Shown: piece after piece, positions 30,227 through 36,030 of the stretch
How the letters are laid out: the number at the start of each line of letters is the position of its first letter
How positions within the stretch are numbered: the stretch's first letter is position 1
NCBI GenBank assembly: GCA_934479825.1
Contig: CAKSOW010000009.1
Location: forward strand, 18,338-82,337
DNA: 64,000 nt
Direction: 5' to 3'
DNA from: an uncultured Eubacteriales bacterium
GTDB taxonomy: Bacteria > Bacillota > Clostridia > Oscillospirales > CAG-382
The notes under the pieces: model-generated
The model's database searches: none
What the model was told of the DNA's origin: nothing
The model's input: the letters and a program-made list of their open reading frames with translations, nothing else
Made by a program: the position numbers and the translations under genes

Positions 30227-31322
30227 GCTGCAAGGGCTATTCGCCCTTAGACCTTGTTCGTTTTTCTTAAAAGAAAAGTGAACAAAAGAATTTACATTTT
30301 TGCCGCCCGACGGTTTGCCGTCGGACGGCTTTTGCTTTTCACGAAAAGCAAGGAAAGAGAACGTTTTTACGTTCTTTTTCCTTTTAGCAAAAAGAACCAA
30401 AAGGGCGTTTTTTCTGTTACTTTTCGCCTCTGCGAAAAGTAACCAAAAGCAGACCAAGGGCCTCGGCCCTCTGGACTCCCAGAGTACGGTTCAAAATTCC
30501 GAGCGGTGGATTTTTGATTAAATTACAAGCTTTGTACCTATCAAGAAATTTTAGCAAAAATCGTAGTCTTGTGCCATACAGCTCGGAGTATTTTGAACCG
30601 GTGCGAAACGCATGCTTTACTGCGTAAGGATTTGTCGGTGTTTTTGAAAAGGCATGCTCCGATTTGGGCGGACAGCAGGTTATGTGTGTCATGAAATGGG
30701 AGAGTTTGGCGGGAGGTTGTTTTTGAGAGAACAGAAAATTGTTGTTTGGGAAAGCGGAAAGTTTGGGATGAAAATGCAAAAATTCCGGTTTTCTGCATAT
30801 ATGTAAACCACAGATTTACATCAAACTTTCCAATCACGTACATCAATTTCCCTTTTCCAACGCAACAAAGATAACGTGCACTTTCCCTTTTAATCGTTCG
30901 CTTGCGGCGGCAAGCACGCACTGCAACTTCGATTTTCCACAAAACCCGATTCTGCGTTTTATCAAAAGTTGCCCTTTTGCACCGGTTCAAAGCCTAAAAA
31001 ACGTTTTAGACACGCACTGTTTCAAGTTCTATAAAAGGCACGCCTGTGCAGAGCTTTGAACCGCTCCCCGGGAGTCCAGAGGGTCGAGGCCCTCGGTCTG
31101 CTTTTGGTTACTTTTCGCAGAGGCGGAAAGTAACAGAAAAACGTCCTTGGGGTTCTTTTTACAAAAGTAAAAAGAACCCCAAAAACTCTCTTTTCATTGC
31201 TTTTCTTGAAAAGCACAGTACGCCCGATGGTAAAACCATCGGGCGTACAAATTTAAATTCTTTTCCCCCGCTTTTCTTAAAAGAAAAGCGGGCAAGGTTT
31301 TGGAGCAAGTCCCCCTTGCTAT
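30227..31322. repeat. ORF-less hairpin-rich element, copy A (~1.1 kb; arms about 30227-30495 and 31055-31322)
   Basis: It fills the whole pfkA-isomerase intergenic region. The two arms are inverted repeats of each other. It carries four GGTTCAAA boxes. It matches copy B as a reverse complement. Confidence 0.85.
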
Positions 31323-32213
31323 TTATTCCAGATTTTGCTCACAGCACTGTATGAGATACTTCCCGACCTCAGCCATAAAGCGAGACGCTGTCCCATATAA
31401 CTCCTTCGGCAACGGCGCAAGGAAATTCCCTGCCTCATAGGTAAAATCGCCTACATAGTCAATATCACGCAACGCATCGGTGATTCTGTCCCAATAGCCC
31501 ATGCCGCCGTAGTACGGAAGCGTGTGCAGGTCGCTCTTTCCGTCCGTGTCGTGGACATGTAACGCGCCTAATCTGTCATGCCCCAAGGCACGGATAAATT
31601 CTTCCGGTTTCTCATGAACAAGCATGGTGTGTCCCAAGTCAAGGCAAGCGGTAAAACAGCGATTGTCGCCAAGCGCGTCCATATACCGGATAAACTCCTC
31701 CGGCGTTGAACAGGTCGAATGCCCGATACAGCTATCGCACCGGCCGATCAGCCTCTTGTCCTGCCACATATTTTCCACAGCCACACGAATACCGTATTCT
31801 TCGCAATACGGCTTCAACCGGTTGTAGAATTCAATATTCATTTCAAACAGCTTTTCCGGCACTCCGTCATTCGCATATGCAAGATGCTGCACCGGGTGTA
31901 CCACAATATTCTTCACTCCGAGCAGCGATGCGTTTTTCATCGACCGGACAATATCCCCGAAAATCTCTTCGTCTCTCTCCGGTTTTCCGACACTCGACGG
32001 AAACGGCGCATGCGCCTGATTGAACACAAGCCCCTTATCTTCGGCTTTTTTCCGGAGTTCAGTAAAAAAGTGTCCGTCTAAATCTTTCGCATAATAGCGG
32101 ACATTGAAAAAACCGAAATCCAATGCCGTAAAACCTGCTTCCGCCAACATATCCACGGTTTCTTCCGGCGAAAACTGGTGTAAATAGATAGCAATTGAAG
32201 TTGAAAGCAACAT
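31323..32213 (-). CDS. Sugar phosphate isomerase/epimerase (xylose-isomerase-like TIM barrel)
   Basis: Motifs HAPF, VVHP, VENM, LDLGH and HVHD are typical of the AP_endonuc_2 / xylose-isomerase-like family. Confidence 0.8.
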   Translation of the reverse strand: MLLSTSIAIYLHQFSPEETVDMLAEAGFTALDFGFFNVRYYAKDLDGHFFTELRKKAEDKGLVFNQAHAPFPSSVGKPERDEEIFGDIVRSMKNASLLGVKNIVVHPVQHLAYANDGVPEKLFEMNIEFYNRLKPYCEEYGIRVAVENMWQDKRLIGRCDSCIGHSTCSTPEEFIRYMDALGDNRCFTACLDLGHTMLVHEKPEEFIRALGHDRLGALHVHDTDGKSDLHTLPYYGGMGYWDRITDALRDIDYVGDFTYEAGNFLAPLPKELYGTASRFMAEVGKYLIQCCEQNLE

Positions 32214-32299
32214 TTATTCTCAACCCTTTCTTTTTTCTTTTATTATAACGGCTCTCATAGCGTTTGTCAATACGCGAAAATTTTTCGTTCGCACACTAC

Positions 32300-32328
32300 T
32301 TGACTTTCGCTTGCGGCATTGTTACAAT
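32300..32328 (+). promoter_or_regulatory. Sigma-70-type promoter of the beta-helix gene pair
   Basis: TTGACT, 17-nt spacer, TACAAT. Confidence 0.5.
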
Positions 32329-32376
32329 AAACAAAAAGAATTCATACCCAAAATCCGAAAAAAGGAAGTGTTCTCT

Positions 32377-33576
32377 GTGTATACCTACATTCAAGCCGGG
32401 ACAATGAAAGGCGCAACCGACGCCGAACAGATCCAAAACGCCATAACCGAAGCGAAAAATAACGGCACAAACCGTATCGTTATTTCCCGTCATAACGACC
32501 GCACCGGCGCGGATATCTGGAACATCGACCGCACGGTTTTTCTGCCGGACGATATTGAACTTCTTATCGACAACGCGCATCTGCGCCTTGCCGACGGCGT
32601 CTTTTGCAACATGTTTGCCAACGAAAACCTTACAAAGGAAATTTCGCGCACATCAGCAGGCGAACAGAAAAATATCACGATCCGCGGAATCGGAAACGCT
32701 CTATTGGACGGCGGCGTCTACAACGGACTTTCCGAACGGAACAGCGAAAAGGACGGCAGACCGCACATTTCGGTCAATACCATGCTCCTTTTTTTCAACG
32801 TGTCGGGACTTCGCATCGAAAACCTTGCCGTAATCAATCAGCGTTGGTGGGGTATGACCAACATTTTCGTCCATGACGCGGTTTTCCGCAATATTCGCTT
32901 TGAAGCGGATATCTCGCGCATAGACTCTGACGGGATTCATCATCCGGATGAGATCCCGAAAACCTATGACGAAATCTACGTTAAAAACGCGGACGGTCTG
33001 GATCTTCGCATCGGCTGTCATGATATCCTTGTCGAAAACATCACCGGTTTTACCGAGGACGATACCGTTGCCCTCACTGCGCTCGGCGGCTTTGAACGCA
33101 AGCTTGGTTATATTATTGAGGGAGAAAGCACAGACATTCACGATGTGAAGATCCGAAATATTGCGTCAGACAGCTATTTCTGTGCCGTCGTGCGGCTTCT
33201 CAACGACGAGGGCAACAAATTATACAACATTGATATTGACGGCGTTACACACGTGTATTCCGGCAAACACCCGGCAAGACCGGATTTTGTCGTGCGTATC
33301 GGGGATATGAACTACGCCAAGAAGCACAGCACGCTTGGTGATACGCACCATATTTCCGTGAAAAATGTCTATTCGCACGGAAAATTTGCCGTCGGTCTGT
33401 TCAAAGGATTGGTCGATTCAGAGCTTGACAATATCGTTGTGGCCGACGGCGGCTTGTACGGTTTCGGCAGTCACGAGGGCGGAAACGCGGTAATCAAAAA
33501 TGTACGCTTTGGAAAATTTGTCACGCTGTCAGAGGGCGCAAAAGCCATTCATGAAGGCAGCTTTGCCCAAGAGTGA
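32377..33576 (+). CDS. Right-handed parallel beta-helix protein (GH28-related / pectin-lyase fold)
   Basis: AAAGGAAG RBS before the GTG at 32377; the ORF track begins at 32311. Repetitive beta-helix turns (NITIRGIGNALLDGG, LRIENLAVIN, VFRNIRFEA, ILVENITG). Confidence 0.7.
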   Translation: MYTYIQAGTMKGATDAEQIQNAITEAKNNGTNRIVISRHNDRTGADIWNIDRTVFLPDDIELLIDNAHLRLADGVFCNMFANENLTKEISRTSAGEQKNITIRGIGNALLDGGVYNGLSERNSEKDGRPHISVNTMLLFFNVSGLRIENLAVINQRWWGMTNIFVHDAVFRNIRFEADISRIDSDGIHHPDEIPKTYDEIYVKNADGLDLRIGCHDILVENITGFTEDDTVALTALGGFERKLGYIIEGESTDIHDVKIRNIASDSYFCAVVRLLNDEGNKLYNIDIDGVTHVYSGKHPARPDFVVRIGDMNYAKKHSTLGDTHHISVKNVYSHGKFAVGLFKGLVDSELDNIVVADGGLYGFGSHEGGNAVIKNVRFGKFVTLSEGAKAIHEGSFAQE

Positions 33577-33618
33577 TTCTTCAATCCTGTAAAATCCTAT
33601 AATACAAGGAGAATTCTT

Positions 33619-34923
33619 ATGCAGAACGTACTTGATTTCGGTGCCAAGGGCGACGGAAAAACGCTTGACACAGCAGCCATCCAAGCCGCTATCGACGCCG
33701 GCGGCGAGGTCTACTTCCCGAAAGGCATTTACATCTCCGGCACACTGTACTTAAAAAGCGGCGGCGGACTGAATCTTGCCGCCGGTGCGGTTCTTCGCGC
33801 ATCGCATGACCGTGCCGACTACAACGCCGACGATTTCTGCGAACAGAATGTGGCGTTTTCGCAAGAGACCGTCACCGGCGCACACTTGATTGTAGCAGTG
33901 GAACAAGAAAGCATCTTCATCAAGGGAGAGGGCGTTATCGACGGCGATTCGCATTATTGGATGAACGAAAGCCGCATGGTGCCGGGCGAAGACGCCTTTG
34001 CACCGCACCCGGACCGCATCGCGCAGATGATTTTCCTCTGCGAATGCAAAAACGTGAAGATCACCGATATTTCGCTCCGCTATGCGCCGTATTGGCATTT
34101 ATTCTTACACGGCTGCGAAGATGTGCAGATTCGCGGCGTCAACATCAAGGGCGAGCCGCGGCAATTCACCAACGACGGCATTGATATCGACTGCTGCAAG
34201 CGTGTGACGGTAAGCGGCTGTATCATCGATGTGGGTGACGACGCGCTGACGCTCCGAGCTAATGAAAAACGGTTAAAGGAAAAGCGTCCGTGCGAGGATG
34301 TGACGGTCACCGGCTGTGTGCTTTGCTCACGCCTTGATTATGCTATCCGCATAGGCGTCGGAGCAGGAAAGATACGCAACTGCCTGTTTTCCGACATTCG
34401 TATTCACGATTCCCACTGCGGCGTCGGTTTCACCGCCTACTTTGCTCTTTTCCGCTCGGGTATGGCGGCCACCATTGAAAACATTCGCTTTTCAAATATG
34501 CTTATCGACGCCGGTCGTCCGCTCGATATCCGCAACGCTTCGTCGGATGACGCGCCGCCGGCCTCAAACTATGCCTACATCAAAAATATCGCCTTTAACA
34601 GTATCCGGACTTTTGGCAAGCGCAGCAACACCATTTCGGGTTTTGTGAACAGCGAGCTTTCACACCTCACCTTTACCGACTGCGATTTTGTCTGCAGCGG
34701 CAAAGGTAAGGTCACCGAAGACCGGGACGAGAACGGACATTGGGACAACCGAACCTCTGACAGTCTGTTTGTCATCCGCAAAGCCAAAGACGTTCGTTTC
34801 CGTAACTGTGATTTTTCTTTCACGCCGGAAAGCGAAAGCTATGATTATGATGCCTCGACGGATGACTGCGAAAACATTCAGTTTTATAACTGTCTGCATT
34901 CCAAGGGAGTCAAAGATATCTGA
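33619..34923 (+). CDS. Glycoside hydrolase family 28 (polygalacturonase/rhamnogalacturonase-like)
   Basis: AAGGAG RBS. N-terminal VLDFGAKGDGKTLDTAAIQAAID. Catalytic region NDGIDIDCC...DVGDDALTL. Confidence 0.85.
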   Translation: MQNVLDFGAKGDGKTLDTAAIQAAIDAGGEVYFPKGIYISGTLYLKSGGGLNLAAGAVLRASHDRADYNADDFCEQNVAFSQETVTGAHLIVAVEQESIFIKGEGVIDGDSHYWMNESRMVPGEDAFAPHPDRIAQMIFLCECKNVKITDISLRYAPYWHLFLHGCEDVQIRGVNIKGEPRQFTNDGIDIDCCKRVTVSGCIIDVGDDALTLRANEKRLKEKRPCEDVTVTGCVLCSRLDYAIRIGVGAGKIRNCLFSDIRIHDSHCGVGFTAYFALFRSGMAATIENIRFSNMLIDAGRPLDIRNASSDDAPPASNYAYIKNIAFNSIRTFGKRSNTISGFVNSELSHLTFTDCDFVCSGKGKVTEDRDENGHWDNRTSDSLFVIRKAKDVRFRNCDFSFTPESESYDYDASTDDCENIQFYNCLHSKGVKDI

Positions 34924-36030
34924 ATTTAAATTGGTACGCCCGATGGTTTTACACCATCGGGCGCACTTTGCTTTTCCCGAAAAGCCCGGAAAGAGTGCTT
35001 TTCGTTTCGTGAAAAACCAGAAAAGAGGCTCTTCGGGAAATTTTTCTTTTTCAGAAAATTTCCCTAAGGGACAATATACGTTCTTTTTGCGTTTAGCAAA
35101 AAGAACCAAAAAGGCGTTTTTCTGTTACTTTTCGCCTCTGCGAAAAGTAACCAAAAGCAGACCGAGGGTTGCGACCCTCTGGACTCCCGGAGAGCGGTTC
35201 AAAGCTCTACACAGGCATACTTTTTATAGAAATTGTAGCTTTTCCGTGACTGAACCAGCTTTCAGGCTTTGAACCGGTGCGAAGGGGCAATTTCGGATTA
35301 AACGCAGAATCGGGTTTTGCGAAAAATCGAAGTTGTAGTGCAGGCTTGCCGCCGCAAGTGGTCGATGAAAAGGAAGATTGCACGTTATCTTTGTTGCGGT
35401 GGAAATGGAAATTGGTGTGAGTAAATACATAGCTTAGAGTAAACCTGTGGTTTACATATGTGCAGAAAATCGGAGTTTTTGCTTTCTCACCAAGCTTTCC
35501 CTTTTCAAAAAAGCTGTTATCTGTTGCCTGCAAAATCAAATTTCCACCAATCTCCCCCATTCCCTAAAACACATAACCTACTGTCCGCCCAAATCAAAGT
35601 CAAGCCTTTTTAAAAATACCCACAAATCCTTGCGCAGTAAAGCACGCGTCTCGCACCGGTTCAAAATATTCCGAGCTGTATGGCACAAGACAGCGATTTC
35701 TCTCAAAGATTTTTTGATAGGCTCATAGCTTGCAATTTAATAAATAACTCCTACGCTCGGAATTTTGAACCGAGGTCGCAGGGCGGAGCCCCGTCTGCTT
35801 TTTGGTTCTTTTTGCAGAAGCAAAAAGAACGTAAAAACGTGCTCTTTTAATTACTTTTTTCGTACAAGCGAAAAAGTAACGTTAGAACGTCCCGGGGACT
35901 TTTTGGGGGCTTGCGGCACGCCGCAAAAAGTAACAGAAAAGCGCCTCTTTTCAGACTTTTCCCAAAACGAAAAATATAAAAAGGGCAGTTTTCCGCAATT
36001 TTTCGCATGAAAACGCTTGTAAATTCAAAA
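34924..36030. repeat. ORF-less hairpin-rich element, copy B (inverted relative to copy A; right boundary approximate)
   Basis: 34922-35203 is the reverse complement of 31055-31260. 35622-35771 is the reverse complement of 30488-30635. It has the same four GGTTCAAA boxes (35196, 35268, 35658, 35764). The outer arm (35772-36030) has diverged more. Confidence 0.85.

Follow-up and report, generated by a model that had tools for sequence, protein, structure and literature searches.

Two inverted copies of a non-coding element with mirror-image hairpin arms and their relatives in uncultured gut Clostridia

Bacterial genomes rarely tolerate kilobase-sized non-coding repeats. We analyzed a 64,000-nt stretch of contig CAKSOW010000009.1 (hereafter, the window) from an uncultured Eubacteriales bacterium, which carries two copies of a non-coding element, designated A and B. 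Copy A is complete (30227..31322, plus strand) and abuts a stop codon on either side, that of pfk (30226) and that of a convergent AP_endonuc_2/TIM-barrel gene (31323, minus strand), leaving no other sequence in this gap. Copy B (34924..35975, start approximate, minus strand) is inverted relative to copy A and 82% identical to it, and its outer end, located beside a GH28 gene, is truncated. That the element exists is confirmed; its scale and architecture are unusual, its distribution is very narrow, and it is apparently undescribed.

The element is 1.1-1.35 kb long and consists of two mirror-image hairpin arms around a conserved, non-palindromic centre. Read from the outside, a hairpin arm of 260-330 nt is followed by a junction, an X module, and the centre of 370-510 nt, after which X module, junction, and arm return as mirror images. 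The terminal inverted repeats (TIRs) are composite, with a length of ~350-450 nt, and comprise an ordered series of 7-9 near-perfect palindromes plus the X hairpin module. The junction is formed by a GAGGGC..GCCCTC hairpin and a short CTCC..GGAG hairpin, and the X module is an imperfect hairpin with the bounds CGGTTCAAA...TTTGAACCG. Three X modules were distinguished, i.e., X1 (~105-115 nt), X2 (~80 nt), and X3 (~110 nt), the last being a diverged mirror image of X1. They combine modularly: X2 occurs on either side, and some copies have X3 in its place. In copy A, the hairpin chain of the left arm (30227..30486, fold z = -10.1) is followed by X1, an imperfect 114-nt hairpin (30487..30600, bounds CGGTTCAAAATTCCGAGC / GCTCGGAGTATTTTGAACCG), a unique, asymmetric, non-coding centre (30601..30982), X2 as an 81-nt imperfect hairpin (30983..31063, bounds CGGTTCAAAGCC / GCTTTGAACCG), and the right arm (31064..31322, fold z = -10.5), which mirrors the left arm module by module. 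All of these features are given on the plus strand. The centre lies between the two halves of an inverted repeat, TTTGAACCGGTGCGA / TCGCACCGGTTCAAA; in copy A, the right-hand half reads TTGCACCGGTTCAAA. In the inverted copy B, X2, centre, and X1 are found at 35195-35276, 35277-35656, and 35657-35772, respectively.

As proposed in a preliminary description of this DNA, the two arms of copy A are inverted repeats of each other, with 30227-30495 on the left matching 31055-31322 on the right (80% over 269 nt, E = 4e-59), and their inner 87 nt are 92% complementary. Loops are likewise reverse-complemented between arms (ctct, cttgta, and ggcgt on the left versus agag, tacaag, and acgcc on the right), which makes the arms true mirror images, beyond a mere resemblance of palindromes. 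The view of the element as one giant imperfect palindrome holds for arms and X modules, i.e., about two thirds of its length, but not for the centre (~380 bp in copy A): comparing its left half with the reverse complement of its right half gave z-values of only -1.1 to 3.0 in 12 copies.

The left arm of copy A starts with a terminal CAAGGGC..GCCCTT hairpin (30229-30251), followed by TTCGTTTTTCT-taaa-AGAAAAGTGAA (30254-30285), a GC-rich terminator-like hairpin (30302-30329; counterparts at 31218-31248 and 34934-34966), a GCTTTTC..GAAAAGC hairpin (30334-30349; counterparts at 31198-31215 and 34970-34985), the GTTCTTTTT..AAAAAGAAC hairpin (30371-30397; counterpart at 35805-35830), and the GTTACTTTTCGC-ctct-GCGAAAAGTAAC hairpin (30416-30443), which recurs at 31107-31134 with one G.T pair and at 35124-35151. 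Next to the latter, GGGCC-tc-GGCCC (30457-30468) is nested in an imperfect longer AAGGGCC..GGCCCTCT stem (~30455-30472). The right arm carries the palindrome CGCTTTTCTTAAAAGAAAAGCG (31270-31291), a weaker copy of which lies at 30259-30285. All hairpins located in the preliminary description were present, their coordinates agreeing within one base. The arms have a folding energy of -143 kcal/mol, compared to -90 ± 5 in dinucleotide shuffles (z ~ -10). The pattern CTTTTY-N(2-12)-RAAAAG occurs 17 times in the window, with 0.85 occurrences expected, and 12 of the 17 are inside the two elements.

The order of hairpins is a property of the whole family. All 28 arms (28/28) are collinear, with a fixed outside-to-inside order, and contain 85 perfect hairpins with a stem of at least 8 bp (median stem 11 bp, median loop 5 nt). 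The usual outer hairpins are GGCGGC..GCCGCC, CTCACGC..GCGTGAG, and GCCGCCC..GGGCGGC-TGGGGAGCCG, followed by GTTACTTTT..AAAAGTAAC, GGGCTTTTC..GAAAAGCCC, and TGCTTTTCG..CGAAAAGCA in the middle, and by one to three GTTCT/GTTAC hairpins and the GAGGGC..GCCCTC hairpin on the inside. Linkers between the hairpins carry GACG with a fixed outside-to-inside polarity. Modules are lost, duplicated, or inserted now and then, and a second type of outer end, formed by CAAGGGC..GCCCTT, CGCTTTTCT-taaa-AGAAAAGCG, and a GC-rich terminator-like hairpin, is found in copy A, L004, L005, L023, and at one end of L012. Beyond the elements, we found no hairpin module elsewhere in the window and only one core-less derivative in ~100 kb of loci. 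The scenario that was put forward as a possible refutation, namely independent insertions of a generic REP-like palindrome (REP, repetitive extragenic palindrome) at arbitrary positions, does not describe these arms, as their hairpins are ordered in all 28 and nearly confined to elements. The left arm of L004 has an inserted extra module of ~130 nt (390-520) that contains CGTCAAAAGTTGCC-ggt-GGCAAGTTTTGGCG, and the mirror image of this module takes the place of the right X module in L007 (440-600) and L002 (2500-2561).

In total, about 20 distinct copies were identified at unrelated flanks, comprising the window pair and those at loci L001-L013 and L022-L025. All are intergenic, a trait of REPs and bacterial interspersed mosaic elements (BIMEs), which are short (20-45 nt), imperfect extragenic palindromes with many occurrences per genome. 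The hosts are a narrow group of uncultured gut Clostridia. A pattern scan of 185,579 species-representative genomes returned two contigs, both from one Hadza gut metagenome-assembled genome (MAG) of an uncultured Clostridia bacterium, and a scan of metagenomes returned 11 stretches, eight of them from one assembly at uniform coverage. Every match in genomes and metagenomes is a non-coding copy, and none is a parent insertion sequence (IS) with the same ends. The element is dispersed to many unrelated intergenic sites in few related genomes and has no coding capacity. Gene callers nevertheless place a 149-aa open reading frame (ORF) inside the non-coding centre of copy A (30541-30990, minus strand). 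Relatives of this ORF numbered only nine among 5.8 billion protein clusters, all on short contigs; they yielded four more distinct copies, and the nine are spurious proteins in public databases. A coding centre was rejected, since ORFs are inconsistent between copies, the 149-aa ORF is broken in copy B, and the protein identity of its relatives (49-58%) is below their DNA identity.

Pairwise identity of copies ranges from 65 to 91% (mostly 73-80%), also within one genome, which indicates an old family without a recent burst. Contigs repeatedly begin or stop inside elements. In the ERZ857757 assembly, ~80 kb contain seven further elements or arm fragments beside the seeds, i.e., about one per 10 kb, a density biased by the contig ends; elements appear to be spaced about 10 kb apart in this related genome and to interrupt a contig each time. 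Sister species (PFK 90, 82, and 76% identical) yielded neither an element nor a hairpin module in 84 kb of sequence, and the closest of them has an ordinary 30-nt terminator behind pfk. An origin from a plasmid, phage, or virus was rejected, as neither BLAST nor four pattern scans revealed relatives on plasmids, phages, or viral contigs.

The preliminary description had claimed that pairing in the arms is conserved while sequence changes, and the enlarged family bears this out. Among 102 arm hairpins with a stem of at least 10 bp, 1236 Watson-Crick pairs face 54 isolated mismatches (~96% Watson-Crick), and pairing is kept despite differences at 20-30% of positions between copies. For the GAGGGC..GCCCTC hairpin in 17 arms, 93.1% of cells pair, compared to 84.2% in shuffles, and cells with a double change number 10 instead of the expected 2.5; neither value was reached in any of 500 shuffles, and pairing is destroyed when the partner column is slid. 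The C-to-T change matched by a G-to-A change in the GC-rich hairpin is real as well, its inner stem reading either CGATGG/CCATCG or CGACGG/CCGTCG, and further compensated outer stems were found (GCCG/CGGC, GTACG/CGTAC, and AGAAG/CTTCT). Three versions of the innermost hairpin were seen (CGC-ctct-GCG, TCG-cttgta-CGA, and TGC-ggcgt-GCA), and its loop is complementary to a word of 5-7 nt that follows the hairpin at a distance of 5-6 nt, after CAAAA(A). This applies to copy A (30428-30454), where the loop cTCTGC is complementary to the word GCAGAC (30449..30454, plus strand), and to 20 other arms. Loop and flank covary in three variants (TCTGC/GCAGA, TGTAC/GTACA, and CGGCGTG/CACGCCG), and the complementary word is absent where the same type of hairpin is not innermost. 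The alternative stem would run into the closing pair at the top of the main stem, and therefore both cannot fully coexist.

Compensatory change alone is no proof of selection, because template switching in quasi-palindromes yields the same pattern (PMC8794818, PMC7202029, PMC8604942) and may contribute as much. That the hairpins are perfect purely through such a mutational process, including gene conversion, with the structure itself unselected, seems very improbable to us. The mechanism is established in the cited work, both strands are treated equally, and loops are reverse-complemented between arms, all of which agree with it; the persistence of an ordered array, the covariation of loop and flank, and the near-invariant blocks of the centre are not accounted for. 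The same applies to the low polymorphism within the window species, where 4.2% of third codon positions are polymorphic, compared to 1.5% of the sites in the left arm (4/260) and, at lower depth, 2.1% of those in the core. The left-arm value, about one third of the third-codon level, is a modest signal of in-place constraint. Template switching is moreover compatible with a dispersed DNA repeat, as favoured below, rather than exclusive of it.

Whether the structure is maintained as RNA or as DNA can be judged from the mismatches. For RNA made from one strand, one would expect G.U pairs to persist and A.C pairs to be purged, and the isolated stem mismatches comprise 13 G.T, 17 A.C, and 24 others, with the same pattern in both arms; without a G.T excess, RNA is unsupported. 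The inner inverted repeat is strand-balanced, too. Of the earlier proposal that the structure is selected as RNA or single-stranded DNA hairpins or as protein-binding sites, the maintenance of pairing stands, while the RNA variant finds no support in mismatches, covariation of the centre, or Rfam.

A reading as paralogous genes for a large structured non-coding RNA is one that we consider unlikely. The functional RNA would be the centre, alone or together with the X modules, and the arms would serve as terminators, exonuclease blocks, or part of a rod-like fold. Several properties of the centre speak for it: nearly invariant blocks lie between variable spacers, RNAalifold predicts nested long-range helices on the plus strand in which one-sided changes are all from G-C to G-U, and in the alignment the plus strand folds somewhat better than the minus strand (-51.6 versus -41.3 kcal/mol). 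Low within-species polymorphism would also fit. Against it, covariation in the centre equals the shuffled level (4 pairs versus 3.5, score 0.171 versus 0.168, 258/500 shuffles as high), single-sequence folding gives z-values of only -2.3 (plus strand) and -3.6 (minus strand), and mirror-image arms would be purposeless for a single-stranded product. No sigma-70-like promoter common to the copies was found in a promoter scan, and a scan for tRNA and tmRNA revealed nothing relevant. The covariance models of Rfam 15, including OLE, GOLLD, ROOL, and HEARO, gave no match in the window at gathering and E-value thresholds; in eight other loci, the single match was a glycine riboswitch aptamer unrelated to the element (RF00504, 62.7 bits; L008 2689-2778, minus strand). 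The evidence favours DNA-level palindromes around a non-coding DNA centre, and a centre conserved by sequence rather than by fold.

The centre, whose length varies between 370 and 510 nt across copies, alternates between near-invariant blocks and segments that vary in sequence or carry indels. The most conserved stretch of the element is a 39-nt block, CTTGTGCCATACAGCTCGGAGTATTTTGAACCGGTGCGA (30568..30606, plus strand, in copy A); it includes both the right X1 half and the inner inverted repeat, with 0-2 substitutions per copy in the 19 copies with X1. The outer stem of X1 is invariant, and its interior is without consistent pairing among copies. Two forms of the centre were observed, one with the small palindrome TGTAAACCACAGATTTACA (window 30800-30830) and one with an unrelated insert of ~70 nt at this position (L001 2060-2150). 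At the apex of X1 (window 30541-30549) lies CTATCAAGA (reverse complement TCTTGATAG), which varies among copies and resembles the CTTGATA nick-site core of pC194/phiX174-type rolling-circle origins; as a 7-mer with a chance occurrence of ~0.13 per element, this resemblance is not significant.

Two orthologous loci with a common flank, L012 (10040-11260, minus strand) and L025, document an exchange of parts. Up to ...GTATTTTGAACCGG (or ...TTTTGAACCGG), the identity of left arm plus X1 is ~99%, and that of X1 and the inner arm alone is 100%; from there on, it drops to ~70% in the centre, with large indels, and to ~88% in X3. This break in identity indicates that, in one lineage, the remainder of the element was replaced in an exchange with another copy, the crossover lying in the 39-nt near-invariant block. 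Homologous recombination, e.g., an inversion between inverted copies, or a site-specific enzyme would each explain the exchange. One could imagine a site-specific recombination module, in which the four CGGTTCAAA sites are recombinase cores, X modules and centres are inverted or swapped in the manner of a shufflon or inverton, and the arms are accessory, although we regard this as quite improbable. CGGTTCAAA occurs four times per copy in the order +,-,+,- (11 in the window versus 1.3 expected), X1, X2, and X3 combine modularly with X2 on either side, 39 nt around one site are nearly invariant, and the exchange between L012 and L025 starts just 3' of the TTTGAACCGG motif. However, homologous recombination at the longest identical stretch explains this chimera equally well. 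Invertible switches and shufflons share the inverted repeats with the element, but X interior and centre were found in a single orientation relative to their junctions in all 19 copies with X1, no inversion was seen in eight strains of the window species, and no recombinase gene lies within ~20 kb.

A second event is preserved at L011 (5550-5760), where a core-less derivative consists of the type I terminal hairpin CAAGGGTACGCCCTTG, a perfect 20-bp palindrome (CGTTTTTACGTTCTTTTTGC-ctct-GCAAAAAGAACGTAAAAACG), and right-arm modules. It resembles the product of a symmetric deletion that removed the entire interior, and such a deletion is the typical fate of a long palindrome folding on itself. 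Pairing of the two arms with each other into a rod, as suggested in the preliminary description, is physically possible, and the core-less derivative hints indirectly at such a rod. Together with the exchanged-centre copy, this derivative points to events at the DNA level.

The outer hairpins could also act on neighbouring genes. The pattern of intrinsic terminators, a GC-rich hairpin followed by a T run, is present at 30317-30329 (plus), 31248-31218 (minus), and 34937-34963 (plus), in each case facing the flanking genes, and is confined to one outer hairpin per arm rather than extending over the whole array. It is plausible that these hairpins terminate transcription or insulate genes in both directions, but such a role does not explain the structure as a whole. 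In L002 (1700-1760), only ~12 nt separate the outermost hairpin of the element from the downstream ribosome-binding site of the adjacent gene, which implies that this gene is transcribed from inside or through the element. An extension of the terminator idea holds that the element is an immobile host DNA feature, either a bidirectional terminator/insulator or a platform for nucleoid, gyrase- or IHF-like proteins, as proposed for BIMEs, that was duplicated by recombination. Elements that abut stop codons and fill entire intergenic gaps, terminator-like outer hairpins on both strands, and copies that are old, fixed, and constrained within the species would suit this explanation. It is nonetheless hardly probable in our estimate: several copies are located upstream of gene starts instead of at 3' ends, Type II ends have no T runs, a terminator needs neither 1.2 kb nor a conserved asymmetric centre, sister species use a 30-nt terminator at the same gene, and dozens of unrelated sites require some copying mechanism.

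We favour, with a probability of roughly 55%, the reading that copy A is a member of a lineage-restricted family of non-coding, non-autonomous DNA repeats, closest in kind to the mosaics of REPs, BIMEs, and REPINs (REP doublets forming hairpins) and to miniature inverted-repeat transposable elements (MITEs) and foldback elements, although far larger. The palindromes would act as DNA, forming hairpins when single-stranded, or cruciforms, and the perfection of their stems may be kept by selection, by intrastrand template-switch correction, or by both. Spread would rely on a putative enzyme supplied in trans that recognizes structured single-stranded DNA or the 39-nt junction block; hairpin-based ends, strand symmetry, the lack of visible duplications, and the pairing of loop and flank suggest a mechanism operating on structured single-stranded DNA. 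Ectopic recombination between copies may later have reshuffled the family, and the GC-rich hairpins with T runs in the outer arms may terminate transcription of flanking genes and insulate them, as is the case for REPs and BIMEs, either as a side effect or in a domesticated role.

Several observations weigh against this reading. The eight strains of the window species are collinear here and ~99% identical, with no inversion polymorphism, and no two copies at different loci are more than 91% identical, so that no recent movement is visible. The deficit in polymorphism suggests some host-level function. The annotated ~38 kb of the window encode no transposase, and neither a transposase nor a recombinase lies within ~20 kb to the left or right. 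The two ends of copy A, or those of the second L003 element (L003b), show no direct repeat in common that would represent a target-site duplication, and no common target is visible. An empty site was not recovered via pfk orthologues, as synteny is broken in the sister species. Furthermore, the outermost ends are of two types and more variable than the inner junction, and an outer-variable, inner-conserved element shows the opposite of the end pattern of classical DDE transposons. Finally, this reading does not account for the near-invariant blocks of the centre.

As a member, the family fits no named kind: it has no GTAG or 5' CGTC tag, no visible duplication, and no parent IS, and is far larger than either REP-type or MITE-type elements. 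With REPs, BIMEs, and REPINs it shares extragenic, non-coding, high-copy palindromic units arranged in mosaics, inverted units flanking a central motif, long vertical persistence in a lineage, the absence of target duplication (none being visible in the element), and plausible side functions as terminator and mRNA stabiliser. It differs from them in being 10-30 times larger with a conserved asymmetric centre of 370-510 nt, in its fixed succession of 7-9 different hairpins where REP-type mosaics use one or two REP types, and in lacking the conserved, unpaired REP tag at the base of the palindrome (GTAG upstream of 1/85 hairpins, 5' CGTC at 0/85). In addition, the REP-type elements belong to Proteobacteria and are mobilised by RAYT, a Y1 HUH transposase whose single-copy gene has the repeats on its flanks, whereas the hosts of the element are Firmicutes, with no RAYT in the annotated ~38 kb of the window. 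Bacterial MITEs, such as Correia/NEMIS, ERIC, RUP, pneumococcal BOX, and B. cereus bcr, are likewise non-autonomous and intergenic, with TIRs and strong predicted structure; BOX elements are equally modular, and both kinds break assemblies. Usual MITEs, however, have a size of 100-400 bp, TIRs of 20-40 bp, a target-site duplication, and a recognisable parent IS, in contrast to TIRs of ~350-450 nt made of hairpins, no visible duplication, and no parent found. Eukaryotic foldback (FB) transposons share with the element very long TIRs of short sub-repeats, a non-coding middle, and a tendency to inversion; their sub-repeats are tandem and direct rather than palindromic, and, with no homology, they serve as an analogy only.

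The subterminal hairpins of IS200/IS605-type HUH elements provide a further comparison. As is proposed for the element, they depend on DNA hairpins beyond mere sequence and could involve pairing of a hairpin-adjacent word with a distant word, to be compared with the loop/flank pairing described above, and they cause no target duplication, none being visible in the element either; they differ in having one hairpin per end, asymmetric ends, and an encoded TnpA, none of which was seen in the element. A bolder version of the favoured reading, which we find doubtful, would see in the family a new class of non-autonomous transposon that is mobilised in single-stranded form. The ordered hairpin arrays would then be the ends, X1 and the 39-nt block would be the cleavage or exchange site of a putative HUH/Y1-type or recombinase enzyme, and loop/flank pairing would take part in substrate recognition. 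A centre acting as a new large RNA that guides such mobilisation is less likely.

If confirmed, the family would represent a structurally distinct kind of persistent intragenomic repeat, the third beside REPINs and MITEs, and a natural system for studying selection versus template switching in keeping long palindromes perfect. On the practical side, the element fragments MAGs and causes inversions in uncultured gut Clostridia, and it seeds spurious ORFs in protein databases.

Regarding the genomic surroundings, window positions 40000-61000 represent core chromosome, including a ribosomal protein operon, secY, adk, rpoA, tsaD, a Rex-like gene, spoVAC, and a ParB-like gene. These genes indicate that the host is a spore-forming Firmicute and that the elements lie within housekeeping territory. 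Copies A and B enclose a segment of three genes outside the element (31323..34923), encoding the AP_endonuc_2 TIM-barrel protein, a hypothetical protein, and a GH28/pectate-lyase-fold protein. A similar arrangement is found at L003 (10359-12455), and in both cases neighbouring inverted elements enclose two to three accessory-looking genes in the manner of a composite transposon. Both adjacent pairs seen, A/B and L003a/b, are inverted, as expected if direct pairs get deleted.

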